Shown here piece after piece: positions 1 through 63,980 of a stretch of 64,000 nt of DNA. The number at the start of each line of letters is the position of its first letter. Within the stretch, counting starts at the first letter, position 1. The translations under genes were made by a program, and so were the position numbers. Under the pieces are notes generated by a model. The model worked only from the letters and a program-made list of their open reading frames with translations. It made no database searches and was not told the origin of the DNA. Origin of the DNA: Ascidiella aspersa (Eukaryota); NCBI GenBank assembly GCA_963924565.1, contig OZ004613.1:6386001-6450000 (forward strand), in the 5' to 3' direction.

Positions 1-521
1 GTGAAAGCATTTATTCCAGCTTTAGAAGCAGCATAGGCAGCACCGTCTTGCAATCCGGTTTTGGCCATTAAACTGGAGATATTAATGATACTTGTCCCTG
101 TTGCATCCTTATTGTCACTAAGCTCTAGTCGCTGAAGAAACTCTCTCGTAAATAGGAAGACGCTTTTAAGATTCACATCTATGATATTATTGAAGGAAGA
201 CGTAGTTGCCTTTGTGATCGAAGTCAAAGCTCCTATTCCAGCGCAGTTGACGAGAACATTGCAATTCTGCCCAAACTGAGAGTGCGAACTTGAAAATGCC
301 TCGGACGGTGACTTTTCTTCCGTTACATCGCACAGAATCATCGCCACTTTGCCTTTATACTTGGCATTCAAATTTCGGTAGGCAGATTCTAGATTTTCTT
401 TGTGGCAATCCACCATCATGACTTTGGAACCTTCGGCCAGAAAGCGTTCGCAAATAGCTTGGCCGAGGCCCCCTGCGGCTCCAGTGACAATCGCCACTTT
501 ACCGTGCAACCTACTCGTCAT
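1..521 (-). CDS. Classical short-chain dehydrogenase/reductase (FabG/HSD17B8-like), 5' part; 3' end lies outside the window
   Basis: ATG at 521 opens MTSRLHGKVAIVTGAAGGLGQAICERFLAEG...CDV...VLVNCAGI...IIDVNLKSVF...SIINISS...AAYAASKAGINAF. It contains the TGxxxGxG Rossmann motif, an NxAG motif, the catalytic Ser and YxxxK. There is no intron in 173 codons. It is missing from the ORF track because no stop lies in the window. Confidence 0.93.
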   Translation of the reverse strand, partial: MTSRLHGKVAIVTGAAGGLGQAICERFLAEGSKVMMVDCHKENLESAYRNLNAKYKGKVAMILCDVTEEKSPSEAFSSSHSQFGQNCNVLVNCAGIGALTSITKATTSSFNNIIDVNLKSVFLFTREFLQRLELSDNKDATGTSIINISSLMAKTGLQDGAAYAASKAGINAF

Positions 522-2869
522 GCTTCCCTTTTGAACTATAGCCTATTCTGAAACGTTTAAAGTAAGACAGTTAAGGAGTAGTAGGCCTACGACAAGAAAC
601 TGGTCATATAACATAAAGGTAGGCCTAATATTAGAAAAAATAAAGTTAGATTTATATATTACCAGATAAATTAAAATTATTTATTATTGCTGGCTTGAAA
701 CTTTTTTGTTAGGTTGAGTTTATCAGAAATTAATTCGTTCCTTTTTTTGACATCACAAACCAGAACTTAATATAGATACACCCTCGGCACCTTTATATCT
801 TTTTAATACCTAGATGTACGCACTGACCGCCTTTTTTCGCAGCTATTTTTTATCCTTTTTTCCTTTCTTTTTACGTTTTATCGCTTTTATTTTCACTTGA
901 TTTTTATACTGATGATGGCATGAGTTATTGCTGAAACGTCTGTAAATTGCGAAATATCGTTTTTATCGAATATTATGGCTTTGATATTTTTATTGTAATC
1001 TGTTCTAATACTAAACTTCAGCATGTGAAGCAGAATGGCTGTAACCTGGCGTTTTCCTTTTACAAACTGTATATTATTATCCTTAACCACATCGTAGATG
1101 CTATCTAACAGTCGGACTTAAAGCGATAAATAGCCTTTTCTTCAATCCGGTCAACGGGTATTTCGTATGCTATACAACACCCATGTTGTTGTACTTTGTG
1201 GCGAAGCATATCAACATATTTAATATTTCAATTCACGTGCGCTAGCCTGGGGAAATGCGAGGCACGTCCGTGCAATGAACGATCGACTATGATAACCTTG
1301 CCTGTTCGAACCCAGTTAAAAGAGAAATGCAAAACACGCACTTGTCTGTTCGAGCACGTTTCTTTACGTAAGTTTGGTTTTGTGATGTATTGATCAACTG
1401 TTACGTTAAGGGTCATAGCCCTTTTAGCTGCAAATTTTAGGAGTTATCGTGTGAATTTTTTAACTAGTGATTTTATTATCACGATTGGTATATACCCTTA
1501 GTAAAGACTTTATCATTAAAGTACTTTTGCCGGTTATTGGAAAAACTCCAACATTAAACTTGAAGCCAAAACACCTCTAACGATTGGCATGCAGCCACAT
1601 TACGATAGGTGTTGTTGTAAACTAAAGACGTTGTGAAGAAAAAAGAAACCGACTGATTTTAAAGCGGCCATTTAAACTGTCCAAATTTAATCGAGTAGTA
1701 AAGGCCTAGCCCGACTGATATTGACTACAAGCGAAGGCTTTTTGAAGAGTATGCCTTGTAGTTTATATTCCGAATTTTGTTTAGAGGGAATGATAATATG
1801 GCTGAATATTAATATGTTTTTAAATATATTTTTGATGAACTTGTGTTTAATATATATTTAAAGCTAAAACAAGGACTGTGTAAAAAATCCAGCTTACTAG
1901 TGGCTCAACTGTTGCAGATATTGCTTTTTAAAAATCTCTTCGGGCCAAGTTCGCCCATGTGTGAAAATAGAACCGACTGCTTTCAAAGCGCCAAGTAACC
2001 TGGCCGAGTTTTTTTTTTATTTTTTTTATTTTACTGGTTTAGTTTAATTTAGAAACAGTATTTATGTGACGCATTGGAATGAGATGATTGGCATCTTGAC
2101 TAAAAAGCATATTTGCGGTCAGGAATATAGATAGTACCGAAAAAAGCTTATAGGCTAAATCAAATTGTATAGACGTATTTTGCCTAAATTAATGCAACTG
2201 AAGTCAAGTTAAAACTCATATCGTATTTTTGGTTAAGCTTTACGAACTGTTTTGGGCAAACGTAGATCGATACTATAAATATACAGTGCAATAAATTTGT
2301 GGCAGTTGCGTTTTGACAATCAATCAGCTAGTTTTACGCAAAACATATTTGGACAATAAATATATTGGAATATTTTGCGGAAATTTATTTAGTTTTTCAC
2401 TTTTTTATTACCGATTGCCATAAAACAGGCAATAAGAATAAATTTTAAACAAAACTCTTTTAAGGTAGAATAATATAAATAAACAACGCAATATTGGAAT
2501 TAAAAGTATAACTAAAGAATATAATAATGGATAAGATAGAATCTATCATTTAATTTACACTTGATTATCTTTAAATTTAACTTGAAATATAGCGGTTCAG
2601 AAGATGTTTTGTATTAGAAGCTATCATTATTTTGTAAAATGTTTATCAGATTAATAAAAGAAAAGTTTTACAAATTTAATCTGTCTTGATATAGTTTTTA
2701 TTTTGTCTTACTTTTATTATCACTATTATGGTAAACGGTAATAAAAAGGAAAAAAAAAATCATTTTGCGTTAAATTAACCAAATTACGGCCAACTATAAT
2801 TTTCAATTTGTCTCGCCAGATGTTGGAATGTTTTTGTTTTTAAAGTTTGTCCCCACAAAGTCTCACCTT

Positions 2870-4843: not shown

Positions 4844-4891
4844 TCATAGCAGAAGGCATCTCTGGCGTCTGCGCCTTCTCCGGCCTGAACG
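4844..4891 (-). CDS. NLR-A terminal exon encoding polybasic + CLLL prenylation motif
   Basis: gttttgtgttacag|CGT TCA GGC CGG AGA AGG CGC AGA CGC CAG AGA TGC CTT CTG CTA TGA. It is phase 0 like the preceding LRR exon. The paralog copy differs by a synonymous CGT>CGA. Confidence 0.8.
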   Translation of the reverse strand, partial: RSGRRRRRRQRCLLL

Positions 4892-7800: not shown

Positions 7801-10800
7801 AACGGAAGTGTGGGAAACCTAAACTATTTAAAAGTATTTTTTCACGCTGCCTGCGAGTGTTTTTTGCCTTTATGATATAAAACATGGTCACGTGTTGACG
7901 TAATGCTATGTCCGTTACTTGCGACGTCACGATTTGACGTAACATTGTGACATCATGTCAATATTTTCATGCGTCCTCAAACAAAAGTCCACATTTGCCG
8001 CTGCCAGGAATTACTTAGTAATGGTGACATAAAAATTCCGTTTACGGAAAATTGTTTTGTACACCAGACAGTGATTTAGTTACCAAATCTTACACGCAAT
8101 GCTGCTGACGGTTTATCCACCTCCATATCATTTCAATATTCAGCACATCCTTCATTTCAACAACACACACTTACAGGTCGATCCAATAGTGATATGGCGT
8201 CAGTTAGAGGTTGGAGATCGGAACCAGCGATATCACAACCCTCCAATACCAGCTGGTTGAGGTTGTGTACACTTGTTGCCAGGCAACTCAAACCACGTAA
8301 ATCCATCTTGTTGCCACTAATGTTCAGTTGCTCCAGCTTTTGCAAAAAACGGTTAAACGGTTAAATAAACGGTTAAAGATTTGCCTAGGCTACTCTATAA
8401 ACTCGCACAACATCTACGAACATAGAACCGTACTAATTTAATAATATTTGACTGTGCAAGGATTGACCATCGCCTATAATGCACATTATAAGGAGTATTT
8501 TTGAATTATTAACTGTAGATAAAAAAATAAATTTCAGAATCCTTAAGTTAACTGAATTAAGGTTGAAGCAGTAAATTATTTTCAAATTATAAGAGCCAAT
8601 CAATATTTCGCTTTAATCAACTTATGTTGTTAAATATTCGGCCTAAATTTCGCATATATACCCATCTAGCTTTTCTGTTTTTTTAACCAAGCAACACGTT
8701 TAAAATTCCAAATCCACCAATTCAAAACTCGATGTGCTCAGAGTAATTGTACAAGGAAGATGAGTTTAAACCACGCCTGCACAACTTAAAATGGTACATT
8801 TGCAGGTCGATTCATTTGTGAAATGGCGTCAGTTAGAGGTTTTAGATCGGAACCAGCGATTTCGCAATACGTTAATTACAGATGGTTGATGTCGTGTACA
8901 CTTGTTGCCAGACAACTCAAACCACGTGAATCCAGCATGTTATTATAAAGTTGCAATAATTTAATCTATAGTGACAAGAAGTTTTTATTGTTCCGTATCC
9001 CGCCGATATGAGCGTTCATAACATCCAAGGTGCTGTCTGCTAATCCTGGACCATAAGTGCCTGCAAAGGGGAGCATTTCCCGCCCAAACATCTGGAATAC
9101 TATGGGATAAACAAGAAACTGCTGTGTCTTTAACGCAAAATTATTTTTTCCGTGTAGAATGCGTGGCTACCCCCCCTCCACAAACTGTAAGTAATTGCCT
9201 TATTTTCTCAATACTGCATATTATTTTCTTTTATAACAGGTAGGCTACTGAAATTAGTCAGCATTCATTGTTTCACATAAGTCAAGTTATATGCCTAAAA
9301 TCAAGTCACTACCCAATATTATTAATAATAATGCGTCTATCGTATGGTCTGTGGGAATTAACAACGGTGTCAAAATCCAATACATTCTTATTTGTCTTCT
9401 AACACACGATTGAACAGAACACCAAGAAATTGGTGGAAATAAGCCCCATTGTGACTAACTGAGCGAGCAAAATAGTTTAAATATTTCTTCCAAGTAAATG
9501 TCCCATGTGCTTGCCCCAGGTGGCCAACCCCTCTTTGGCTAACATTTTCGAGTGTTTGTTTGCAGACGGTTTTAAACATCTATCAATATGCACAAGTATT
9601 TTAGAACAGTTAGAATTTTAAACCAAACAAAACAAGAGAGGGTAATTTTGTGAAAACAAGTGCCGACTTTATGCTTCAAAGACGTTGTTTAAGTGAAACA
9701 CCACCGTCCAGCCATGCAACTTTTTATGAAAGTATGTAATTTGGGAGTTGTATGGAAGCGTGTATTATATTCTCACTGATGTATTTAGGATAAACCTACA
9801 TGTCTTGGTATGTTTAATAAAAATGGTCCGTAAAAAAAATTTTTTGCCCCCATCCCCCTAATATATGCAGACTCTCATGCATGTGCGGTTAATGCTAACG
9901 TATTTACTTATCACAACTAGCATAAACATACAGGATGGTTTCTGCATGAGATGGCGTCAGTTAGAGGTTGCAGATTTAACCCAGAAGTGTCGCAATCTGG
10001 CAACTTCAGCTTGTTGATGTTGCTTGCACTTGTTGCCAGGCAACGCAACTCACGTGACCCCAAATTGTCCACGAATAATTCTTCCATCTACACAAAACAT
10101 AGTTTGGTTTGTTAACGGAAGTTTACTGATACTTACTGATAAAACTTATTTAAACAGCTAAATACCGACTGAGGTAAAATTGATTGTAAACCGGAAAACG
10201 TGGTAAAAGTTAAATTTAGATTCTACACGATAAATATTTGCGCGACCACGCTCAATTGCTGTAAAGAGACAAATACATCAAACGTACACCACACGTGATT
10301 CATTATTGATATACCGGGTGACTAAATTTACCGAAACATTTCATAATTCAGTTAAGCAATTTTACAAAATTTGATTTTTCAGATGTTTGAACCGCGTTTG
10401 AATATAGTATTATGTAACGGAATGTGAAATCTGCATAAAACGTAGCCTAACAAGTGCATTTCCAAAAATGTCGTTTTTATTCAGTTGAATTTACAAGTAA
10501 TTGTGCATGCATCTTTCATGGCTTCGTAAACTTTCTGGACTCAAATCAGTCATATTTGCTGAAAGATGGAGAAACCAAATAATTTTTTTAATGAAACTAA
10601 CTTGAAAGTCAATAGACTTAACAATTAGGCGAATTATAATGGCGACAATGACAAAACCATGTAAATGTCAATTGTTACACGTAAGAACTTACAGGTATTT
10701 CTCTACGTGCGATTGCTTCAGTTAGAACCTCGAAATCTGGCAAATCGCTCGTCTTATAACGTTTTATTTCAACCGGTAACTAATTTAGTCGTTCTAAAAG

Positions 10801-22560: not shown

Positions 22561-25500
22561 TTATAGTTTGTTCAAATTTGCCAAATCCGCAACAGACCTC
22601 CGAACCTCCTTTGTTGTCCCCTGAGGTGATCTTTGCGTTGACCTTTGTGGTGACCTCTGCGCTGAACTCTCTGTTAATTCCTGTTAAAGCAAAGAAACGC
22701 ACTTGTTTAAAAAATGTTATTGTAAGAATTTGAATGAAGTTTTCACTCTGTCTTTACCAAAACAGATCCCACGTTAATTTTGATATTATTTGCCGATACT
22801 ACTAGGATTTATTGTGTTCACACAACATATAGTATGTAATAAGAAGCATGTGTTGCTACTTTTACGTTGAAATGTTCTTACATGATCTGTCCCATCGTCC
22901 AATTCTTGTTCAGTGTATGTTTCTTGGCTTTGACTTGCTTCTGGTTCCAGTTTTGATTTCGCTTTATCGGAGGCTTCCTTTTCTTGACATAACTGTGAAA
23001 GCAGATTTGTTAAGACGTGAATTTGTTCTTTAACGGGACGTACACGTGGAAACTGTAAAACACAATCTGTGTTCTGTTAAAGTACTTAATCAAACTACTT
23101 AAGAGTTACTCTTGGCGACAAAAATGCAGGACTGCGCAAAAATGTTGTGATTACCTCGATACATTAACTACTCGTATTGTTTGTTTGGTCGGTTGTCTAT
23201 AAAAGCAAAACTTGCTAGAGCGGATATACGCGTATCTGTGTAACAACATTAGGCGTCACTCAGACTAAAAGATAAGTTATTACATTTAAAGTTAGAACAT
23301 GCGTCTATTTAAAACGCAGTAGCCACTATTTAAAAATGCAATAACGCCCGGGTCAAGCCAGGTTGTTTCGTTCTGAACCCGAAGCTTTGTGTTTAGCTTT
23401 TCCTGTTTTAAGTTCTGCTTCTAAGTTCAGTTGGGCCTGGACAGATCCAAGCAAACTTGATCTCAGCGAGAAACAAGCGAATGCATTCGATCGCCAGACC
23501 TCCAAGCGCCTTACTTCACAACTTATTCCACTGAACGTCAATAACTACCATCATTATTCCGCAAATATCGACAGGTTTTTTTAACTAATGTTCGGAACGC
23601 ATCATGACGTCACACGTCTAAACACTGACGTCACTAGTGTCGCATCGTTGTCCCGACAACATATCCTTATGTTATGAGTGCCTACCTTGAGCAGAGAATC
23701 TACATCATTATAATCGATGTCGCAATTATCCAATTCCAGCTCTTGTACATTGTGGGCACAAGTTTGGAGGAAAGCATGTCCTTGCGATCCCAACTCGTTG
23801 TAGCGAAGGTCCAACTTCATCATCTACATAAGCACAACATAATGTAAGATACAAGCAGGTGTTTGGCTGCATACAGGAAGCAGCAAATTGAACAATCCAT
23901 ATTCGCAACTTACACCAAAAAACTGCTATTCGTAATAGGTCAGGAAAAAATGGCCATATCGCCCCCCCCCTAGATCCGCCCCTGCCTGCCGTGAGATTTC
24001 CAACTAATGACCTCGGCCATACCGGGACAGTCACTCTAGCAACTGAGCTATGCAAGATCTAAATACAAACAAAAAGGATGTCCAGTTAATGATGGTTCAT
24101 TGAGAAGAAGTACTATCACAATAAATGCACCCAGGCCAGGGCCATTTAAAGGCCAGTAATCAGGGCCAGAGGGGTCAGTAATCAGGGGTGGTTTATGGGA
24201 GAGGGCACGTGGACATGGCTCCACTTAAAATGTATTTATCCTATTGAAACAAAGCGAATGCAAAAATATTTCGCAATACCCGCGAATCCAAGTTATGTTT
24301 CATTATGTCTTAGCTCACTTTAAAACCGGTTTATCCATGGGCGCCGTGCGTTTTATCGCACCCTCTAAAAATAAAGTTTTGGAAACTTAAACTTTACAAA
24401 GGCATGATTTTACGCTGCACGCAAGTGCTTTTTCGTCTTCATAATGTAAAAAGTAGTCACGTTTTGACGTAACGCTATGTCCATTACTTGTGACGTCACG
24501 ATTTGACGTAGCATTGTGACATCATACCTGCAATTTTTTCATGCGTCCGCAAAAAAAACAAAAAAAAACGCCCCTGCCAGTAATTACTTAGTAATGGTGA
24601 CACAAAAAATTCCGTAACGGAAAAATCTTTTGTACACCAGACAGGTGGTTCAGTTACCAAATTTAACACACTATGCTGTTTTATGTTTATCCAACTCAAT
24701 GTCATTCCAATGTTCAACACATCCTTTATTCCAACAACACACACTTACAGGTCGATCCATTCGTGAAATGGCGTCAGTTAGAGGTTGCAGATCGGAATCA
24801 GCGATTTCGCAATTCCATAATTGCAGCTGGTTGATGTTATGCACACTTGTTGCCAGGCAACTCAAACCACGTAAATCCAGATTGCTCTGATACAGTTCCA
24901 ACAATTCCATCTACAATGACAAGAAGATCCAATTGTTACGCATTCTTATTTGTCTTCTAACAAACGTTTGCATAGAAAAATCGAGATATTGGTGTAAATA
25001 AGCCTAATTGTGAACACTGAGCGCGCAAAATAGTTTGTATCCAACTATAACAATCAGTTTTTTGAACGTTTGTGGTTTACAGATTGCTTCCAAGTAAATG
25101 TCCCATGTGCTTGTCCCAGGTCTCCAAACCCTTGAAGCGTATCTTTTTATTATATGTGTTACGCGACATGCTACACGCGACACGCCTATTCTATCGTGCT
25201 AGTGCCGAGCGGTCATTCGCTCGATCATTCGAAAATACAAGCTGACGTGTGCACTGCTCTGGCTCCTACACCCTCTTTGGCTGACGTTTTTGAGTGTTTG
25301 TTTGCAGACCTTTTTAAACATCTATCAATATGCAAAAGGCTGTTAGCACAGTTGGAATTATTAACGAGACAAAACCAGAGAGGGTAATTTTGTGAAAACA
25401 AGTGCCGACTTTATTTTTAAAGATGGTTTTAAGTGAAACACAACCTCCAGCCATGCAACTTTTCATAAAAGTATGTAATTGGCAAGTTGTTTGGAAGCGT

Positions 25501-44831: not shown

Positions 44832-47800
44832 TCATAGCAGAAGGCATCTCTGGCGTCTGCGCCTTCTCCGGCCTGATCGCTGTAACACAAAACAAACGCA
44901 ATAAAATACTTTGTGTGAGTACATTCCAATCAACTTATTCAAGTGCTGCGGAGTCGGTTTAGAACAACCAGTGTCCACCTTGGCCTTGTTTTGCAAGCAC
45001 CACCACTATGGGCGAATACACGAGTTCAGAAGCTATAAAAAAATGTAAAATGATGTTCGAGATATTGTTTCCCTGCAAATTGTTTTTGAATTTGTAGAAT
45101 CTATTTGAATAAGGAAACTGAAGATGCCACTTGGCGAAATATATTTTCCTTATAAACAAACGTCTGATCCTGTTTTTACTCATGTTTTTAACTATGAGTT
45201 TTACTTGTAAATATACGCGTCAGCGGAGCAGTGATCTATGGCTAAAACCTGCCGCCGATGGTTTTGGTTTCTATAAAGATACACCCTAATTATACATATT
45301 CTTACAATGTGAGTCTTACCTTGCGCAGAGAATCCACATCAGCTTCATCGATGCCGCATCCTTCTAACCCCAGCTCTTGTACATTGTGGGCACAAGTTCG
45401 GAGGAAAGCGAGTCCTTGCGACCCTAACTTGTTGCGGTTCAGGTTCAAATTCCTCATCTACATAAGCACAACATAATGTTAGACACAAGCACGTGGTTGG
45501 CTGCATAAAGGTTCTAGCAAATTGAACAATGCATATTCGCAACTTACACCACAAAATGTGCTATTCTTAATAGTTAAGGTAACAACTTTGGGATATATAA
45601 TATCTATTGGGGCCATGGTGGACGAAATAACTTAATGGGACATTTGTTAACTATAGCAACTGAAAAATGATTGAATGCCTTGTGATTGGATATTTTGTTA
45701 TTTTTCTTTAAATACACAATTTGCGTAAAGTTAACATGCGTTTAAAATAAACTAGACCCCTGGTCATTAATTCCAGCTACGCGTTTTCTACACCCTCTCA
45801 ATTATTTCTGCATAAGTTTTATAAAACACGTGGCCATGGCGCTCCCAAACCTTATTTTTTCCTATTGTATCTATGGAAAAGCAAAAATATTTCGCAATAC
45901 GCGCCAATTTAACTTATGTTTCTAGTATGTCTTACCCAACTTGAAAACCGGTTTATCCATGGGAGCCGTGTGTCTTACCGCACCCTCGAAAATTAAAGTT
46001 TGGGAACCTAAACTATTTAAAAGTATTTTTTCACGCTAGTGCTTTTCCTTCTTAAAAAACTAGTCACGTTTAGACGTAACGCTATATCCGTGATTTGGCG
46101 TAACATTGTGACATTATACCTGCAATTTTTTAACCCCCCTCAAACAAAAATCTCGCATTTGCCCCTGATAGTAGTAATTATTTAATAATGGTGAAATAAA
46201 AATTCCATTTACGGAAATAGCTTTTGTACACCAGACTGGGGTTCAGCTACCAAAGTTTACACGCAATGCTACTGCGTAGTTTATCCACCTCAATGTTATA
46301 TCAATATTCAACAAACCCTTCATTCCACAACATACTTACAGGTCGATCCATTCGTGATATGGCGTCAGTTAGGGGTTTTAGATTGGAACCAGCGATCTCG
46401 CAATCCCATAATTCCAGCTGGTTGATGTTGTGTACACTTGTTGCCAGGCAACTCAAACCACGTGAATCCATCTTGTTGCCACTTAGGTTAATTTTTTCCA
46501 ACTGTTACAATAAAGAAGGTTAAATGGTAAATTTGCCTACTATATAAACTCACACAACATCTACGAATATAGAACCGGTGACTCGAACAACATTAATTTA
46601 ATATTATTTAGCTGAGCAAGGATTGACCATCACCTATAATGCACATTAAAAGGAGTATTTTTGAATTATTAACTCTAGATGAAAAATTAAATTTCAGAAT
46701 CCTTAACTTAACTGAAACTAAGGTTGAAGAGATAATCAATATTTCGCTTTATCCAACTTATGTTGTTAAATATATTCGGCTTAACTTTCGCATATAACCA
46801 TCTAGATTTTCTGCTTTATTTTACAAAGCAAGACGTTTAAAATTCCAAATCCACAAACTCAAAACTTGTTGTGCACAGCGTAATTGTACAAGGAAGATGA
46901 GTTTAAACCACGCCTGAACAACTTAAAATTGTGCAAGGGCCACAACAAGCAAAAAAAACATTTCGCAGTCCGCATACTGAAGTTGCATAATAGGTCAGGT
47001 AACAACTACTTAAAATCGCAAAGACTCGCTTTTCTCCAAACAATAGGTCAGGTATAACTCTAGGATATTTAATATCTATTGGGGCAATGGCGGACAAAAT
47101 AGTTTTATGGAATATTTTGGTTAACTATGGCATCTCAACATTATTAAATATTTTATTATTTTTATTAAATCAACTAAAATAGACCAGACCCCAGGTCTTT
47201 ACTTTCGTGTACGCGTTTTTAGAAGAACCACAGTTTAAATATTTCTATATAAGCTTGGCAAAATCACACAAATAAAATGAGGAAAGAACCCGGGCGTTCG
47301 TATTTTAACCTAAACTCCCCTGCTTAAATTTATTGGTATTTTTTTATTGACTTGGCGACAGACGAAGCTATGCGAAATGAAGTGGCATTAAATCAAATTG
47401 CAAAAGTATGAGTGAACGTAGGCGCTTTTCGGGTTGCAATTACTTCAACAGGAAAATGTTGTTACAAAGTAGTAATTGCAATTCAAGTGTTGGTTGGTAA
47501 ATTGCTCTCATAACTAGTAAACACAAACATAAAGGATGTCTAGTTAATAACGGTCCATTGAGAAGAAGTGCTATCAGAATAAAATACTCAGACCACGGTT
47601 ATTTTAGACTCTAGCTAGAAACTATAGGGGTGGATCCATAGGAGACGTATTTTTGCCTATTGTAACAACGTGAATGCAAAACATTCCGCATAACCCGTGA
47701 ATCTAAGTTATATTTCTAGTATGTCTTATAGTTCACTTGAAAACCGGGTTATCCATGGGCGCCGCGCGTCTTATCGCACCCTCGAAAACGGAAGTGTGGG

Positions 47801-50800
47801 AAACCTAAACTATTTAAAAGTATTTTTTCACGCTGCCTGCGAGTGTTTTTGCCTTTATGATATAAAACATGGTCACGTGTTGACGTAATGCTATGTCCGT
47901 TACTTGCGACGTCACGATTTGACGTAACATTGTGACATCATGTCAATATTTTCATGCGTCCTCAAACAAAAGTCCACATTTGCCGCTGCCAGGAATTACT
48001 TAGTAATGGTGACATAAAAATTCCGTTTACGGAAAATTGTTTTGTACACCAGACAGTGATTTAGTTACCAAATCTTACACGCAATGCTGCTGACGGTTTA
48101 TCCACCTCCATATCATTTCAATATTCAGCACATCCTTCATTTCAACAACACACACTTACAGGTCGATCCAATAGTGATATGGCGTCAGTTAGAGGTTGGA
48201 GATCGGAACCAGCGATTTCACAATCCTCCAATACCAGCTGGTTGAGGTTGTGTACACTTGTTGCCAGGCAACTCAAACCACGTAAATCCATCTTGTTGCC
48301 ACTAATGTTCAGTTGCTCCAGCTTTTGCAAAAAACGGTTAAACGGTTAAATAAACGGTTAAAGATTTGCCTAGGCTACTCTATAAACTCACACAACATCT
48401 ACGAACATAGAACCGTACTAATTTAATAATATTTGACTGTGCAAGGATTGACCATCGCCTATAATGCACATTATAAGGAGTATTTTTGAATTATTAACTG
48501 TAGATGAAAAAATAAATTTCAGAATCCTTAAGTTAACTGAAATTAAGGTTGAAGCAGTAAACTATTTTCAAATTATAAGAGCCAATCAATATTTCGCTTT
48601 AATCAACTTATGTTGTTAAATATTCGGCCTAACTTTCGCATATATACCCATCTAGCTTTTCTGTTTTTTTTACCAAGCAACACGTTTAAAATTCCAAATC
48701 CACCAATTCAAAACTCGATGTGCTCAGAGTAATTGTACAAGGAAGATGAGTTTAAACCACGCCTGCACAACTTAAAATGGTACATTTGCAGGTCGATTCA
48801 TTTGTGAAATGGCGTCAGTTAGAGGTTTTAGATCGGAACCAGCGATTTCGCAATACGTTAATTACAGATGGTTGATGTCGTGTACACTTGTTGCCAGACA
48901 ACTCAAACCACGTGAATCCAGCATGTTATTATAAAGTTGCAATAATTCAATCTATAGTGACAAGAAGTTTCTATTGTTCCGTATCCCGCCGATATGAGCG
49001 TTCATAACATCCAAGGTGCTGTCTGCTAATCCTGGACCATAAGTGCCTGCAAAGGGGAGCATTTCCCGCCCAAACATCTGGAATACTATGGGATAAACAA
49101 GAAACTGCTGTGTCTTTAACGCAAAATTATTTTTTCCGTGTAGAATGCGTGGCTACCCCCCCTCCACAAACTGTAAGTAATTGCCTTATTTTCTCAATAC
49201 TGCATATTATTTTCTTTTATAACAGGTAGGCTACTGAAATTAGTCAGCATTCATCGTTTCACATAAGTCAAGTTATATGCCTAAAATCAAGTCACTACCC
49301 AATATTATTAATAATAATGCGTCTATCGTATGGTCTGTGGGAATTAACAACGGTGTCAAAATCCAATACATTCTTATTTGTCTTCTAACACACGATTGAA
49401 CAGAACACCAATAAATTGGTGGAAATAAGCCCCATTGTGACTAACTGAGCGCGCAAAATAGTTTAAATATTTCTTCCAAGTAAATGTCCCATGTGCTTGC
49501 CCCGGGTGGCCAACCCCTCTTTGGCTAACATTTTCGAGTGTTTGTTTGCAGACGGTTTTAAACATCTATCAATATGCACAAGTATTTTAGAACAGTTAGA
49601 ATTTTAAACCAAACAAAACAAGAGAGGGTAATTTTGTGAAAACAAGTGCCGACTTTATGCTTCAAAGACGTTGTTTAAGTGAAACACCACCGTCCAGCCA
49701 TGCAACTTTTTATGAAAGTATGTAATTTGGGAGTTGTATGGAAGCGTGTATTATATTCTCACTGATGTATTTAGGATAAACCTACATGTCTTGGTATGTT
49801 TAATATAAATGGTCCGTAAAAAATATTTTTTGCCCCCATCCCCCTAATATATGCAGACTCTCATGCATGTGCGGTTAATGCTAACGTATTTACTTATCAC
49901 AACTAACATAAACATACAGGATGGTTTCTGCATGAGATGGCGTCAGTTAGAGGTTGCAGATTTAACCCAGAAGTGTCGCAATCTGGCAACTTCAGCTTGT
50001 TGATGTTGCTTGCACTTGTTGCCAGGCAACGCAACTCACGTGACCCCAAATTGTCCACGAATAATTCTTCCATCTACACAAAACATAGTTTGGTTTGTTA
50101 ACGGAAGTTTACTGATACTTACTGATAAAACTTATTTAAACAGCTAAATACCGACTGAGGTAAAATTGAATGTAAACCGGAAAACGTGGTAAAAGTTAAA
50201 TTTAGATTCTACACGATAAATATTTGCGCGACCACGCTCAATTGCTATAAAGAGACAAATACATCAAACGTACACCACACGTGATTCATTATTGATATAC
50301 CGGGTGACTAAATTTACCGAAACATTTCATAATTCAGTTAAGCAATTTTACAAAATTTGATTTTTCAGATGTTTTAACCGCGTTTGAATATAGTATTATG
50401 TAACGGAATGTGAAATCTGCATAAAACGTAGCCTAACAAGTGCATTTCCAAAAATGTCGTTTTTATTCAGTTGAATTTACAAGTAATTGTGCATGCATCT
50501 TTCATGGCTTCGTAAACTTTCTGGACTCAAATCAGTCATATTTGCTGAAAGATGGAGAAACCAAATAATTTTTTTAATGAAACTAACTTGAAAGTCAATC
50601 GACTTAACAATTAGGCGAATTATAATGGCGACAATGACAAAACCATGTAAATGTCAATTGTTACACGTAAGAACTTACAGGTATTTCTCTGCGTGCGATT
50701 GCTTCAGTTAGAACCTCGAAATCTGGCAAATCGCTCGTCTTATAACGTTTTATTTCAACCGGTAACTAATTTAGTCGTTGTAAAACTATTTCTACTAAAC

Positions 50801-53800: not shown

Positions 53801-56800
53801 GGAATAAAACGAATGAAATTAGATGTTGTCCGCAATCTTAATGCACCCAATTTGTTGCCAATTTTGTTTTATCATGTGAGCTAACTAGCACATATGAATG
53901 TATAACTTCCTTGGTAGAATATATAGCGTAAAATTTTGCCCTGCACGCTTTGCTTATCCCAGCCACCAAAACGTTAGTAAATGATTAACGCCTATCGTCG
54001 GTTTCACTTAAAAATGACTCTTGTAAGCGTAGGCTGGCTTTGCTTATTTATATTAATAAACGCTTTTTTTATTTCCAAAACTAGTGTGTGTTATTTTGTC
54101 AAAAAGTGATTTTGCTTTAAACAGAGTTACACCGTTTTATTTATTGTATAATCGCTAATCACTTTTGATATATCTCCAACTTAAACTCTTACAAACAAAA
54201 GGCTGATACTGGGATCAGCAATATCGGAAATCGTTCTAACAAACGACATTACCATCATTATGGGATTAATGTAACGCCGTCGTGTATACACATAAGGGGG
54301 CATTACATAAAAGTAATTTTTGCAAAATTTTGTACGTCACAACACAAAATAGACTTCATAACTCTGTTATTTCGGTCCGAAAAATGTGAAAGTAAGTTAA
54401 ATGGAGTCTAGCTATACATTTAAATCCGTTTAAGTTTTAATTAAAGTGTTTTCTTTTCAAAATTAATTACTTTAAGTATACACTAGTTCTTTAATTAGGC
54501 TTTCATGGACTCCCTAAAACTAGTTCACGGACCCCAAGGGGTCCATGGACCCCAGTTTAAGAACCCCTGACATAAAATAAGAAACAAACAGCACTGTAGG
54601 TAACATTTAACCTTAAATGGCAACATTCGTACTGCGAACTTGTAGCAGTTTTCCGCAAAGTGGTAACTTCTGGCTTAACAATTCAATCAGGGACGTAACC
54701 AGAAAATCAAAAAGGGGGTTCTGACTTTTCAACTTAGGGAATTCCCCTATTTTTCGTCTGACTTTAATGAATAATGACGTCACAAAACGGTGACAGTATG
54801 ACGTCATAGAACTAGTCAGAAACAGCCAAATACGTCCAGCAAAAGCGACCACGTGCCCCCCTTGCCCCCCCGTGCGTGCGCCCATGACCATATGCTATTC
54901 CGCTTTTACGATTTACAGTTGGTAACCATGTCAGTTTTGTAATATGGTTCTGCGCATGCGCACGTCCAACTCGGGACTCGGCTAATCATACGTGGTCTTA
55001 CTCGAGTCCCGACTCCGACTCAGCAGCCCTGCTGTAGCGCAACCCACACTTGGGCATTAGTTTTAAATCGAAGTTATCACCAACCGTTGTCAGATGAGGT
55101 CGCTGTTGAGTCGGCAGCCACTCCAGGTCCTTGTAGCTGGCCATATATATGAACGTCGCCATGGAGGTTTTGTATGGGACCTTGATGACCGTAAACGTCA
55201 CCAATGTTTACAGGTAGCATATTGATTGGCTGGTTGTTTGCTGGTGGAAGCTGAGGTGCATTTTCACCCTGTATAAATACGTTGATGTTCAATTTTAATT
55301 TAATTGCGAAATAACATTTTAACACAAATAGCTTTGGGTCCTTTTTAGTATTTATTTTACTTTTAACAAAAAATATATTCGATTTATTTTACTTTTTAAA
55401 CTGCGTTTTACCTAAAACAGCTTTAAATAAAAAACCAAATAAATAATGTGATTAAACAGAGATATAATGTGTAAAATTAACAGCCAATTTAATATGGTTT
55501 TAAGAGCAGAAAATATTTTTTTTTATTGTTTATTTTAAATTTTTGATGGCAAAACTACAAAGATTATGTCCAAGGTAACCGTGCTATACAGGCTCATCAG
55601 TATCGCATGCCAGAAAAGCGAATGACTGTTGCCTAGTGCAGTGATTTTTAACCTTTAAAAAAACTGTCCGCACTTCATTTTCGGAAAAGTTTTATCCGCA
55701 CGAAACAAGCACAGTAAGTTTGCACCCTTTAGCTTCCCCTATTTGTAAAATAACAATGAAAGGATGTGTGTTTTAAAACCGTGAGTCTTAATCGATATAA
55801 ATATAGATAGCGTATGCTTCAATGGCTTTACCTTAATTAACAACCACAAGAATAACAACAACCATTTATACACAAAGGGAATTAGCAGTCATTAATGTAC
55901 GTGATTAATGACTCGTTTGCTGCTGAATATTTTTGGAAGTTTCAGCCCAATTAGGAACAACTTCTTGTTCCAAAGCTCCGCGCATTAGGTCATCAAGTGT
56001 CGCGTTGAGAAGACAACTTCTTTTTCTGGTTTTAATGTTAACAAATGCACTAAATCCCTTTTCTGCCAAGTAAGTAGTTGGTTTGCAGAAGCACTTTTAG
56101 TGCTAGCGTCGCCAGTTCGTTGTAATATCCATCAAGAGCACCGATTCAAAATTGTGTTTTTCACGATTAAAAAACGCTCGTTGACAGAAACCGTTTTTAA
56201 GATAGGGCTACCATATTTTCAGCACCAAAAAAAGACCTTTTTTGCCAGCACGTGAAACGAAAGTAAAATTGGTAAATCCTTTTATTTTTAATTATAGCTT
56301 ATTTTGCTTTATGGTTGTCTAAATTTAAAGGATGATAAGGAAAATGAAAGCATCTGCTGAGGACTACCTGTATGCTATAGACCAGGCGTCGGCAACCTAC
56401 GGCCCGCCGCCTCTTTGACAAACTAGTCCATTTCAAATACTATATTTTTTTTATATAATATTTTAACTAAGTAAGTGCGAAAATTTTCAAGCTTCGCGAA
56501 AATGATCTTTTTACATCCGGTTTGTTTACTTAGGATGCTGTCTTTTGAACTAGATCAGCGCTTCTTTACAGTTGCGCCGTGTAAGGCTGCCAAGTGCGTC
56601 GCGGACAAACGGAAAACGTATTCATAATATTGGATATATGTTTTTTAACATTTTTAATTTTTTTTCGGTAATGTAATAACAACTTGCAAGGAATTTAAAA
56701 GAAATGTAGGTATACCAAAAAGAAATAGCGCTCGCTTGGTTAACAAACACTGAAATAGATTAACTATTAAAGGTTAATAAGATAAGTTTCACTTTGTCAA

Positions 56801-58334: not shown

Positions 58335-60719
58335 ATATAGATAAAATAAGTAAAATTTCTGGGTTATTAGGCAAAATTTGCTTTAGCGGGTAAAAAGTTT
58401 AGTTACGTCCAGTTAATAATCTTTAATTTTTTTAAATAAATTTACGTCACAAGGCAGAATGGCTGCGTTAAATCACAAGTCTTGGCTGAAATTCCCATAT
58501 TAATGTGGTTTAGGATCGACACCGATACAACCTTAGTATCGGACGAGTATCAACGATACCACCACTTGGTATCGGGTATCGGCTTTGATCCGATATTATC
58601 GGACATCCCTATAGTTGCAACATGACGAAATATTTACCTAAAATTCGCGCTGAACTTGACATTAGTAATTCTGGTAATAAAGTCATAATACTTTGAAACA
58701 GGGCTGCGGAGTTGGACTCGGGACTCGAGTAAGACCACGTAAAACTACCCGAGTCCAGAGTCCGACGTGCGCATGCGCAGTACCAAGATTTAGAACTGAT
58801 ATGGCCGCCAACTGGAAATTGTAAGGGTGGAATAGCATATAGTGGTATATTTTCCAACCATGCATTGTGAGTGAATGAGTTATTTCGGCTGCGTTTTGCG
58901 TCTTATATGAAGCCGCAAGACTTGGTAAAAAAGGAACCGGCTGATTAGGAAGCGGCCATTTAAGCTGGCCGATTTATGTTGAGCACAACGAATTGAAGGC
59001 GTCGAATCAGTTTGGAGCAGAATGAGCCGTAAAAAATTAACCAAGAAAAGTAAAATCAATGTAAACTACCGCAGTGGTCGAGCCAACAAAATCAAAAGGC
59101 GACCCATCGTTGAAAAACACTGATTTAAACTTGTAGAGAAACGACGCATGTCTGTTTGTGCTTGTAATTATAGCGTGTTCGCCTGGTAAAGTGTTAAATA
59201 ATTCACCTCGATACTCTTTTCCTTTCCTGGCCGTTCTGGCAAATCCAGCCGGCATTTCGATTTAGCTAATCCCCAACGCAGTCTCTCTTGTGCTATATTG
59301 TATATAGTGTCACGCTGCTGCTGGATAAAAAACTCCAGGCATAAAACGCATGCCTTACTTCCGAGACGCGTTTTACTGCGCTGTAAGCTATTTTATTAAG
59401 AGCGAGCTATGTTGAAATATTTGAATGTAAAATAAATTTATAAGCGACCTGACAGTAAGCCATTTGAAATGCAATGACAGTTTGTTTAGTTTCGATATAG
59501 TGGAGTTCAGATAGTACGGTGGTCATGTCTCACCTGTTGAAATATACAAACTAAAAAAATGCGTTTATTTGCTTGAACTTGTAAGTTTATCACCCTTGTT
59601 TAATGCAAGCTTTGTTAACTATTTTGCGTCAGAGCGCACCTGTACACCTTGTGCATGGCAGCATGAAACGCCTGCAGCTGACCCTGCCTGCCTTATAGTC
59701 AAGTTTAGTTTACTTAGCGGAGTTTAGCTCGTAATAAAATTATTCATTGAATGATTTACTGAAATGCTTCTAGCATTTTTTTGTAGTTGTAACATTATGT
59801 TTTCCATAGTTCCTGGGCTGATTTCGCAATCAAAATAACAGCAATGATCATAGCTTTTTCCCTTTCCACTTTATTTGACATTAGAAAATTCATTTTCATG
59901 TTTATCACAAAAAACGTGCGTATGCTGACTCATTCTCTAATAATATTTTGTCTGTACTGACACACGTATGCCTAGACCTAAAATGTCAGTTCTCATATCA
60001 AGTCGAAAGTTTACTTGATTGCTAAAGCAAAACTGCCACACTTCTATAGGCTACAATGTACTTTTTATAAAAAACAATCAAAATCCATTGTTATTATGTA
60101 ATTTAATGCACTGTTGTTATAATCTGGGTCAAAGAACCTGTTGGTTTGTTGTTTCGTAATCGCGGCTTGCAACGCAATCGGACACTTTATATGGCTGATT
60201 CCAAATTGGCCGGCTCCATTATTTCGGCCGTGATGTGTACCTTATATGAAGCGGCAAGACTTGGTGAAAAAGGAGCCGACTGCTTTGGATGCGGCTATTT
60301 AAACTGGCCGATTTATGTTTAGCAAAACGAATTAAAGGCGCCGAGGCAAACGCAATCAGTTTGGTGCAGAATGAGCAGTAAACAATTACTTGAGATCAGT
60401 TAAGCTAGTTGTGTTGTGTTATGGTTGACCTCCGTGTTAAAGTTTGCTGCTGATTAATGCTGCAAGTCTACTTTGATAAGGTATATATTTTAAGTCTTTG
60501 TTAATTATATTTATTTCAAGTGAATGCATTCTTATTTCTTGAATACCTAGAAAACACACCACGGTCTAAAATACCGCCTCATACAGGGGACTGAACCACC
60601 CGCCCAAAGAAACAAAATATGTGGCCAGCGAGAATAGTTTGAACCCACCACACGAATACTCCGACGAGTATGATTTACCACTTTTGAAACGTCTATTTAA
60701 CAAGGGTTTTATGTACAAA

Positions 60720-61100
60720 TGCTGTCGTTCTATGGTTCTAATGTTGTTCTTATGTATAGCAAAATAATGTTGTAGTACTATAGGTTTTTATGCGCAAATG
60801 TTGTCGTTCTATGGTTCTACTGTTGTTCTTATATATAGCAAAACAATGTTGTAGTAATATAGGTTTTTATGCGCAAGTGTTGTCGTTCTATGGTTCTAAT
60901 GTTGTTCTTATATATAGCAAAATAATGTTTAAGTAATATAGGTTTTTATGCGCAAATGTTGTCGTTCTATGGTTCTACTGTTGTTCTTATATATAGCAAA
61001 ATAATGTTGTAGTACTATAGGTTTTTATGCGCAAGTGTTGTCGTTCTATGGCTCTAATGTTGTACTAATAAGTTTTATCTACAAATGTTGTCGTTGTATG
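60720..61100 (+). repeat. 79-bp tandem repeat (4 full units plus a partial)
   Basis: Units start at 60720, 60799, 60878, 60957 and 61036. The homologous site at 21439-21580 has one full unit plus a partial. Confidence 0.9.
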
Positions 61101-62113
61101 GCCTGGCAACTCCTGGGCAGTTGTTTAACGTACATAGAGCAGGTGTGTTTTATGCTAATGCAAATTGAGGATTTCTGTGTGAGTTTTCGCAGTTATTTGT
61201 GGCAAGAATGACATTGTAGATATAGTGTGCGTTTTAATTTTTTGTTTTGTTATTTTACATTTAACCCGCATAATTAGTTCACAATGTGACCAGTAGCAAA
61301 GGTAAAGAGGCGTAAGTTTAAAGTGGACTCTAGTTATAAACGGTGGATGACAAAGACAGGCAACATACAACTATGTAGCTTCACTTCGGCCTAACACATT
61401 TCGTAATTTCAAAACGAGAAGCTTTTTTAAAACGACCAGCATATTCAGGTTAGGCTTATCAATCAATCGACCACGATTTATTTATAAAAATGTAACACAT
61501 TTAATGTTTGTGAATCGTAATTATAAAATCAATAACGACAATAAAGACAAAAAATTCAATTTTATTTAGCCAAAACGAAAATGAAAAAGTGTGACAACAC
61601 AACATTTTGTTTTACTTTAATGGACAGTCAAAAACAACCAGTTAAAATTCGTAATTTTTATGCAAAACAACGTTTGTCCGAAAGTTGACGACATGTTTAC
61701 TAATTGCCAAGGCACATTGATTAAGACAGGAATACTATAAATAACCCCCAGGAGAGCTAAAGACGTTGGCACAGCGCGTAATAAAATTGTAATAACAACC
61801 GAAAACATTAAACGAATACAACGTTGATTAAATGTGTGAAGATTGCAGCTGCATTTGGTTCCGTTGTTTTACCACAGGCATTCTTTATGAAATAAGTCAA
61901 CTAATTCTACTACAATATGAAAGTATTGATTGCAAACCGGTTTATTCAGTTGTTGTTTAGAGAAACTTTTACGACATTATTTGGATCATTTTTGAAAAAA
62001 TAACTGGTTTTATAGAAAAGACAATGTTGTTAATCGCTCTCTTGTATAAAACAAAATATTGCAAAAAAATTTTGGATGAGAAAGAACTCAAGTGCAATGT
62101 ATCTGAAATAAAG

Positions 62114-63980
62114 TTATAGTTGTTCAAAGAATTTTGCCAAATCCGCAACAGACCTCCGATCCCCCTTTGTTGACCCTTGAGCTGACCACTGGGGTGACCT
62201 TTGCGTTGACCCCTGGGGTGACCTTTGCGTTGACCCCTGAGGTGACCTTTGCGTTGACCCCTGAGGTGACCTTTGCGTTGACCCCTGGGGTGACCTTTGC
62301 GTTGACCCCTGAGGTGACCTTTGCGTTGACCCCTGGGGTGACCTTTGCGTTGACCCCTGAGGTGACCTTTGCGTTGACCCCTGAGGTGACCTTTGCGTTG
62401 ACCACTGGGGTGACCTTTGCGTTGACCCCTGGGGTGACCTTTGCGTTGACCCCTGAGGTGACCTTTGCGTTGACCCCTGGGGTGACCTTTGCGTTGACCC
62501 CTGAGGTGACCTTTGCGTTGACCCCTGGGGTGACCTTTGCGTTGACCCCTGAGGTGACCTTTGCGTTGACCCCTGAGGTGACCTTTGCGTTGACCCCTGA
62601 GGTGACCTTTGCGTTGACCCCTGAGGTGACCTTTGCGTTGAGCCCTGTGTTGACCTTTGCGTTGAACTCTAAAGTAAAGAAACGCACTAATTTGAAAATG
62701 TTATTGTAAGGATTGGAATAAAGTTTTCACTCTGTATTTAGCAAAACAGATCCCAAGTTAATTTTGATATTACTTGCAGACACTATAGAGTTTCTTGTGT
62801 TCACACAACATTTGGTATGTCTAGTAAGAACTATGTATTACTACTTTAACGTTGAAATAATCTTACATGATCCGTCCCATAGTTCATATCTTGTTCAGTG
62901 TATTTTTCGTGACTTTGACTTGCTTCTGGTTCCGGGTTTGATTTTGCTTTATCGGAGGATTGCTTTTCTTGATATAACTGTGGAGACAGATTAGTTAAAG
63001 ACGTGAATTTGTTCAATGGGACGTACAAGTGAATACTGTTAAACACAATCTGTGTTCTGTTAAAGTGCTTAATCAAACTACCAGAGTTACTTTTGGCGAC
63101 AAAAATGCAGGACATGGGAATGCGCAAAAGGTTGTGATTACCTAGGTACATTGAGTACACGTATTGTTCGTTTGGTCGGTTATCTGTAAAAGCAAAACTT
63201 ATTATAGCGGATATACGCGTATCTGTATAGCAACATTAGGCGTCAGCCAGACTAAAGAAAATATCACATTCAAGATTAGAACAAGCGCCAATCTGAAACG
63301 CAACTGCCACTATATAAACATGCATTAAATGGCATTATACAAGTAAAGACATAATGATAATTAACCGATTACTTGTGAATTCGTTATTGCGCAACTCGCT
63401 CTACTCGTTACTCGCCAGAGTCAAGCCAGGTTGTTTCGTTTTTAACTCGAAGTTTTGTTTTTAGCTTTTCCTGCTTTGAGTTTAAGCCAAGTTGTTTTGC
63501 TCTGACCCAAAACTTTTTAGTTCTGCCTCTTTTAGGTCAGTTGAGCCTGAACATATTTGAACAAACTTGATCTCAGCGAGAAACAAGCGAATGCATTCGA
63601 TCGCAAAAATGTCAGACCTCCAAGCGCCTTACTTCAAATCTTATTCGCGTGAACGCCACTAACTGCAATCAAGCTGTGGCTGATTATTTCGTTGATATAG
63701 AAATGCTTATTTAACTAAACTTGTACAATTTGATGCAACGGGAGCATCATTACGTCACCCGTCGAAACACTGGCGTCACTAGTGTCGCTATGTTGCTCCC
63801 GCATATATTGTTACGTTTTGGGTTATGTTTATAGGTGCCTACCTTGCGTAGAGAAACCACATCATTATAATTAAGTGAGACGTCGTACAACTCCAGCTCT
63901 TGTACATTGTGGGCACAAGTTCGGAGGAAAGCGAGTCCTTGCGATCCAAAAGTTTTGCCCATTAGGTTCAACTTCCTCAA
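62114..63980 (-). CDS. NLR-B' (B-type paralog), last three exons; the 5' part lies beyond the window
   Basis: LRR exon 63843-63980 (LRKLNLMGKTFGSQGLAFLRTCAHNVQELELYDVSL...SLRK|GTAGGC), tail exon 62867-62977 (LYQEKQSSDK...YGTDH|GTAAGA) and terminal exon 62114-62668 (S(STQRSPQG)~20...RRSVADLAKFFEQL*). Confidence 0.75.
62186..62665 (-). repeat. 24-bp coding minisatellite, 20 units (TCAACGCAAAGGTCACCYCAGGGG)
   Basis: Read directly. Only ~1.5 degenerate units are present at the homologous site 22610-22665. Confidence 0.97.

Follow-up and report, generated by a model that had tools for sequence, protein, structure and literature searches.

Ascidians belong to the sister group of the vertebrates. 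Expansions of NLR families in invertebrates are usually read as diversified ligand sensing or as diversified N-terminal effectors, and tandem C-terminal repeats rich in Ser, Thr and Pro are familiar from the CTD of RNA polymerase II. The SFM F-actin motif, which is of the Lifeact/ITPKA type, has the core V(P1)xxL(P4)xxxF(P8)E(P9) (PMC13364712), and 103 human motif hits are reported in the accessible part of that paper. Links between NLRs and actin have been described for human NOD1, which acts at F-actin-rich sites via SSH1/cofilin (PMC4154870, accessible sections), and for sea-cucumber AjNLRC4, which engages actin (PMC8699970, accessible sections). In plants, the atypical modulator NLR NRCX lacks canonical activation features and belongs to an NLR network that has expanded (PMC9851556, accessible sections). 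The CaaX signal for prenylation is defined as a Cys-aliphatic-aliphatic-X end (PMC12057185, accessible sections).

The NLR family of Ascidiella aspersa described here resembles the SFM actin binders (PMC13364712) in VxxLxxxFE, in a Ser at P0, in a predicted short helix within disorder and in a linker to an unrelated folded domain. Unlike in them, the motif follows a minisatellite spacer and forms the very C-terminus of an NLR, is lineage-specific and appears to have been gained, lost and exchanged among paralogs. With NOD1 and AjNLRC4 the family would share NLR function at F-actin-rich sites; these two reach actin via a partner or via the NACHT-containing intracellular part, as far as the accessible text of the two papers goes, whereas here the receptor itself encodes a dedicated tethered motif. 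The component parts are known, but neither an NLR with an integrated SFM motif nor one with exchangeable SFM/CaaX ends was found in the literature searched, which comprised papers available without subscription. The terms NLR and NOD do not occur in the main text of the SFM paper, and NLR terms had no match in four supplementary files in their accessible form, which is a weak blank, as a control word was equally absent there. On balance, we favour the view that the last exons of this family encode exchangeable C-terminal address tags, and that the tag of the gene treated here would be a length-variable tether to F-actin.

The window, i.e., the whole stretch of DNA that was analyzed, comprises 64,000 nucleotides (contig OZ004613.1, positions 6,386,001 to 6,450,000), and positions without a prefix refer to it. 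It contains a tandem minus-strand run of NACHT-LRR genes. Pfam NACHT, NOD2_WH and NLRC4_HD2 were found on the window paralogs, in agreement with an earlier note on this DNA, which had attached the minisatellite to an NLR gene, here called the host. The genome contains at least 55 last-LRR exons, 54 of them on C7 at 2.38-6.59 Mb and one on C6; a genome search with the penultimate-exon region yielded 44 matches (40 of 51 candidates were scored), and additional copies turned up in a further search. The family count is a lower bound. The copies are young (NACHT dS mostly 0.1-0.3), have a common ancestry and convert each other, and therefore copy counts are not counts of independent events. Among named proteins, NLRC3-like proteins of ascidians come closest (Phallusia mammillata CAB3264356.1 with 38% identity, Clavelina, Ciona); they are alike in NACHT, WH, HD2, LRRs and a low-complexity N-terminus without CARD or PYD in the exons read. 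Unlike the present family, they end soon after the last LRR: the motif was found at the C-terminus of none of 45 long homologs and none of 87 proteins of at least 730 aa, which points to a lineage-specific motif, and a CaaX-like end in one of the 87. In the last LRR exons of 41 copies, variation is concentrated in two predicted LRR strand segments, as expected of diversifying ligand faces. A short-chain dehydrogenase frame lies at the edge of the NLR cluster (window 3-542).

The end of the host gene and the corresponding exons of paralog B are organized as follows:

63843-63980, minus strand: last LRR exon of the host NLR, beginning and ending in phase 0; the remaining gene lies beyond the window at C7:6452784-6458547.
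62867-62977, minus strand: penultimate exon of 37 codons, an acidic/polar linker, phase 0 at both ends (111 nt; 38 aligned copies).
62669-62690, minus strand: rescued splice acceptor; sequence comparison revealed a 15-nt deletion of the usual family acceptor, with the frame kept.
62114-62668, minus strand: likely last coding exon of 184 codons plus TAA, with the S/T/Q/R-rich repeat and the terminal motif (open frame, AlphaFold2 single-sequence model).
62171-62665, minus strand: minisatellite with a 24-bp unit of two 12-bp half-units, 20.6 copies (TRF), a predicted disordered spacer.
61941-61946, minus strand: likely poly(A) signal AATAAA, 167 nt past the stop (family survey of 35 tails).
22882-22992, minus strand: penultimate exon of paralog B.
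22561-22680, minus strand: last exon of paralog B with a short repeat, the terminal motif being destroyed by a small local frameshift.

The host repeat exon is a minus-strand open frame behind the acceptor tttactttag, which is closed by a TAA at 62116-62114. TRF reported period 24, 20.6 copies, 95% matches and a score of 878; this is the only array of coding size among the 10 TRF rows of the window. The translation reads S, 20 octamers, SAQGSTKGDRRSVADLAKFFEQL and the stop, with 17 exact STQRSPQG units, STQRSTQG as unit 1 and STQRSPQW as units 11 and 20. The tail contains 21 TQ, 19 SP and no SQ sites, has basic neighbours and consists to 36% of Ser and Thr; the approximate counts of 20 TQ and 19 SP given earlier were thus accurate. 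The earlier suggestion that the two W units reflect a block duplication fits the unit pattern (TTCTCTCW, then TTCTCTTCW) if one slippage step is added, but a W unit is also present in the paralog at C7:6.546 Mb. Among the repeat tails of the family, which range from 36 to 376 codons, the host tail is the third longest. Downstream of the host gene, at 60703-61102 of the window, lies a non-coding 79-bp minisatellite, the copy number of which varies among paralogs.

The frame was evaluated with the family. At 35 of the 41 loci first examined, a homologous phase-0 acceptor precedes a repeat exon in the S-T-Q frame; the six loci without such an exon were dropped from this survey and later placed in the CaaX class. 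In 33 of the 35 cases the exon is open to the family's end, while two carry a premature stop, as does one penultimate exon. The penultimate exon was aligned for 38 of the 41 loci (three with large insertions were left out), its length is a multiple of three in all 38, and its donor is invariant. All of its distinct gaps are in frame (3/3), compared to 15 of 95 in the flanking introns. Of the 35 tails, 22 have an AATAAA no more than 400 nt past their last stop, compared to two with an AATAAA between the upstream acceptor X, described below, and the penultimate exon. The frames reading VNAKVTSG, TFALTPEV and QRKGHLRG were rejected, as they have no matching phase and no conserved end; the two other sense frames have no silent excess among repeat variants, and a Pfam Cornifin match on the repeat was attributed to composition. 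The earlier note had proposed the STQRSPQG frame and a phase-0 acceptor following the phase-0 exon 62867-62977. The exon has phase 0 at both ends, and the frame is very probably right, with the common acceptor, the conserved in-frame end and stop, and the penultimate length divisible by three as family evidence. That at least part of the family's transcripts have the repeat exon translated in this way is rated as highly probable, the splicing being read from genomic DNA. Contigs of run X1 cover introns as DNA does and contain no splice joints, and the run may derive from the source sample; therefore they are uninformative on expression or repeat length. All exons downstream of the NACHT exon are phase 0, and thus last exons could be exchanged without a frameshift.

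In paralog B, with which the host had been compared, the acceptor does lie 12 nt further upstream, and the frame is unchanged (exon 22561-22680). However, the acceptor of B is the usual one of the family, and that of the host is derived, because the usual one was lost in the 15-nt deletion, which created a new in-frame TAG; with its frameshifted end B is also a poor reference. The length variation deduced from these two paralogs is real, but the comparison set is a family of at least 55 copies with about 2 to more than 40 octamers.

In the arrays of the 22 subclass-S tails, 48 distinct one-base unit variants were counted (later units of array C7:5370704 were left out): 15 silent, 32 missense and one stop. 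The silent share does not differ from the 28% expected (P=0.36), and stops are weakly depleted (1 compared to about 4 expected, i.e., 8%; P=0.08). A second repeat subclass yielded 5 silent variants of 18 (P=0.55). The CCT/CCC polymorphism, which had been used as an argument for the frame, is indeed silent in it, but over all variants the argument is weak. Nor do the one-base unit variants point to diversifying selection on the units.

These data bear on the main function that had been proposed for the tail, a CTD-like phospho-array. In its general form, this explanation holds that the translated tail serves mainly as a phosphorylation (or O-GlcNAc) array for kinases or phospho-binding partners and that the terminal motif is incidental. 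The abundance of TQ and SP sites and of Ser and Thr next to basic residues would suit it, as would the silent nature of the three commonest one-base variants, which affect Thr, Pro and Arg codons, and an S/T-rich frame retained in the most divergent copy, which is without the motif. A conserved unit sequence under purifying selection, as for a CTD-like array, was not found among the variants, however. Thr, Ser, Arg or Asn readily take the place of Pro, SP is absent from the units in 13 of 35 tails, the octamer number ranges from about 2 to more than 40, and it is the terminal VxxLxxxFE, not the units, that carries the constraint. While the repeats resemble the RNA polymerase II CTD in being tandem, C-terminal and rich in S/T/P, their unit sequence and number are unconstrained. 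We regard a phospho-array as main function as quite unlikely; phosphorylation of S/T sites as a secondary tuner is possible. The variants suggest that the repeat behaves as a near-neutral spacer rather than a conserved phospho-code. The most divergent copy (C7:6584200-6584640) has its own S/T-rich tail of 60-nt units behind the same acceptor type, without penultimate exon and without motif.

The host tail ends with the following element:

62123-62149, minus strand: V-x-x-L-x-x-x-F-E (VADLAKFFE), which agrees exactly with the SFM F-actin motif and has Ser at P0 (definition in PMC13364712).

VADLAKFFE, which the earlier note does not mention, has V at P1, L at P4, F at P8 and E at P9. By chance, such a match would start within the last 15 residues with a probability of about 2e-4, and anywhere in the 221-residue tail with about 6e-3. 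The motif stands in frame at the C-terminus of 19 of the 22 subclass-S tails; the strict motif was lost in the other three. In an AlphaFold2 single-sequence model a helix was placed at exactly residues 174-183, and the rest was disordered (pLDDT under 50-55). The amino-acid p-distance is 0.08 at the motif anchors compared to 0.36 at other positions, for copies that are related and not independent. Over P0-P9, the codon variants comprise 11 silent and 11 missense changes (P about 0.01 compared to 25% silent expected; paralog B was left out), which indicates that the motif codons are constrained. A complex prediction with the C-terminal 33 residues and the genome's own cytoplasmic-type actin, run without alignments, scored 0.83 in three runs, compared to 0.66 for one unrelated-partner control and 0.02 for other controls, and counts neither for nor against actin binding. 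When the PDB was searched by sequence with the tail end and with a profile of 14 rows, there was no match at E up to 10, and no known actin binder was recovered. The tail-end helix is a predicted F-actin-binding element, in which the motif specifies four residues only. The family motif pattern has 28 matches in the genome, all of them NLR tails on C7, and the reversed control has none. A separate donor gene for the motif exon was rejected, since every genome match (22/22 and 28/28) was an NLR tail. At C7:22.15-22.24 Mb there is a tandem row of at least eight cytoplasmic-type actin genes without introns, some of which have odd substitutions.

In two window paralogs, A and A', a different exon occupies the last position:

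44832-44879, minus strand: CaaX last exon of paralog A', RSGRRRRRRQRCLLL followed by the stop, with a polybasic run and a CaaX box.
4844-4891, minus strand: CaaX last exon of paralog A, the same exon type as in A'.

This Arg-rich phase-0 exon was found at 20 places; the CaaX box is intact at the stop in 13 (11 CLLL, 2 CLLQ), and 7 are truncated. Polybasic membrane anchors are carried by Rho/Rac-type proteins, and 13 of the 20 sister exons are alike in having an Arg run and then Cys-aliphatic-aliphatic-X directly before the stop. Here, by contrast, the anchor stands on an NLR as an alternative to an actin tag, and prenylation is predicted from the sequence; the CaaX copies would end in a predicted membrane-anchoring lipid tag. 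A match of the CaaX exon on C6 belongs to another NLR and not to a GTPase. The 55 last-LRR exons lead to the repeat with motif in 22 cases, to a related repeat with frameshifted end in 13, to a CaaX exon in 19 and to another S/T tail in one. Both tail-exon types after one last-LRR exon were found in none of the 55 cases in the downstream DNA examined (2-3.5 kb for most copies), and this exclusivity rests partly on a genome-wide search. One CaaX exon (C7:3784697), counted outside the 19, lies 11 kb behind a repeat-bearing gene. Tags are often lost: the strict motif is missing from 3 of 22 subclass-S tails and lies out of frame in 13 further tails, and truncation affects 7 of the 20 CaaX exons. 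The motif is read as functional mainly because two independent recognizable localization signals share one slot.

A tree of 20 NACHT exons rejected a single clade of the four CaaX copies (p-AU 1.4e-5); the tree and dS set comprised 20 of 24 loci, as four cut at the edge of the fetched stretch were left out, and groups were named from the tail exons. This indicates that tails and NACHT exons were reassorted, although NACHT gene conversion would give the identical tree result.

Several further observations concern the sister tails. The second repeat subclass (13 copies, e.g., L037:2850-3000, L031 and L058) ends in the acceptor frame with KRSAEDSKEEWEEKKAR plus N, Y or H before the stop; a bipartite nuclear signal may be considered for this frameshifted subclass. 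Its actin motif lies in the +1 frame, and all five of five changes past the frame-0 stop are at third positions of that frame, as if the +1 frame were still translated. Paralogs A and A' are 98% identical, lie 40 kb apart and have a common in-frame stop in the third of the LRR exons found (8798-8965, 48784-48951); both are without acceptor X and without the penultimate exon. The Clavelina NLR isoform XP_076802100.1 ends in short acidic 10-residue repeats and a CaaX-like box, an ending that its sister isoform lacks and that is possibly an independent tag.

The host copy itself is damaged, a point likewise absent from the earlier note. Its upstream exons lie outside the window (C7:6452784-6458547), and a gene model of eight exons runs through 832 codons without a stop. 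The Walker A motif reads GIAEIGKN instead of the GIAGIGKT of 22 of the 23 P-loops read; only that of the host is broken. The NACHT domain has a 173-codon in-frame deletion, the junction of which is spanned by a contig of run X1 that agrees at every position, and the host is without a complete HD1/winged-helix/HD2 core. Three LRR-pattern exons were found, by eye and tblastn, compared to 4-6 in neighbours, the first LRR exon being missing, and 27 otherwise invariant residues are changed. The NACHT exon is 74-79% identical to the window paralogs. Its private indels (15, 3 and 519 nt) are all in frame, and the 69 private substitutions comprise 49 missense, 20 silent and no stop changes (P=0.06), with an omega of 0.67, which is not significantly below 1 (P=0.09). 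For the N-terminus, two short low-complexity exons were found, without CARD or PYD in the exons read. One N-terminal exon (about 55080-55250 in A', L011:6908-7073 in the host) contains imperfect repeats like NIGDVYG..IQNLHGDVHIYG, which are degenerate in the host; we take it to look RHIM/amyloid-like. With these changes, the host copy would have no ATPase activity and could not assemble into a normal oligomer. Like plant NRCX, it is a family member without canonical activation features in an expanded NLR network, according to the accessible sections of PMC9851556; it differs in the loss of the P-loop and of 173 NACHT residues, which is known here from the sequence. The odds between a modulator or decoy and a gene in early decay are about even.

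Between the last LRR exon and the penultimate exon lies a second potential acceptor:

63532-63615, minus strand: near-invariant intronic block plus acceptor X (63546), four codons and then a stop; a possible tag-less or poison exon.

The reading frame behind X is stopped within at most four codons in 40 of 41 copies, and that of paralog B runs for 27 codons. At X with its early stop the p-distance is 0.04, compared to 0.11-0.12 for ordinary intron, and nothing in the region varies less than the 70 nt upstream of X, with a heterozygosity of about 0.01. X is retained in the distant C6 copy and is missing or damaged in several copies. The block at 63547-63615, which includes a 12-nt palindrome before X, is shared by at least 40 copies; a second conserved block at 63391-63415 contains a possible donor about 95 nt after X in typical copies. 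X and the second block are a candidate poison cassette exon. A structured RNA was rejected for the intronic block, as Rfam gave no match and the consensus fold was weak.

X is probably a real alternative acceptor that gives an untagged protein or an NMD target, and many transcripts may stop before the tail via X. If most of them ended at X (or underwent NMD), the repeat would be largely untranslated; alternatively, the host copy could be a decaying pseudogene with a runaway minisatellite. The conservation of X and its early stop, also in the C6 copy, the damaged NACHT domain, the near-neutral evolution of the repeat and the stops in two repeats and one penultimate exon are consistent with one or the other. 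Nevertheless, such an explanation is unlikely. The frame of the penultimate exon is conserved, its donor is invariant, the motif varies as coding sequence does, and poly(A) signals lie behind the last exon and not behind X. Furthermore, CaaX boxes are functional only at a protein end, X is lost or damaged in some copies, no indel of the host copy shifts the frame, and a copy with an intact P-loop carries the longest tail (376 codons). Constitutive use of the 63546 acceptor, which the earlier note had named as the case against a translated repeat, is unlikely, as it is hard to reconcile with the constraint on the exons downstream.

Exchangeable address tags would work as follows. The minisatellite would encode a disordered, length-variable tether for a predicted F-actin-binding helix at the C-terminus of an ascidian NLR, and the motif would dock in the SD1/SD3 cleft of actin, as do Lifeact and ITPKA. 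CaaX copies would be prenylated and thereby directed to membranes. Unequal crossover or gene conversion would exchange tails among paralogs, slippage and block duplication would let the array grow, and tether length would set reach or avidity within an oligomer. Sensors stationed on actin filaments or membranes could watch sites of microbial entry or actin remodelling. Exon structure, phases, motif, tail classes, reassortment and host damage can be read from the DNA; splicing, actin binding, prenylation and the immune role are what we infer.

The tail might instead be an integrated bait, a disordered stretch with an actin-binding mimic that is cut or modified by microbial proteases, kinases or actin-targeting effectors and thereby trips the NLR. 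The fast turnover of tail length and end motif and the hypervariable LRR faces that adjoin the tail would fit, and NOD1 signalling is coupled to actin dynamics (PMC4154870, accessible sections). However, the repeat shows no sign of diversifying selection, and the CaaX exon is nearly spacer-free and reads as a pure localization signal. We assign a bait only a slim chance; length variation would then diversify the bait and not the reach, which is compatible with address tags.

Taken together, the address tags can be extended, tentatively and with more doubt than confidence, to a scheme in which NLR paralogs swap phase-0 ends, either a Lifeact-like tether or a prenyl anchor, X yields the untagged form, and the ATPase-dead host copy acts as an actin-bound brake or decoy. 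The 14-residue motif, the 15-residue CaaX exon and the graded tether lengths are natural test constructs. If the explanation is true, these genes would be a dated example of how an SFM motif arises, spreads and disappears in a single family, and subcellular position (actin filament, membrane or none) would be a third genetically encoded axis of NLR diversity.
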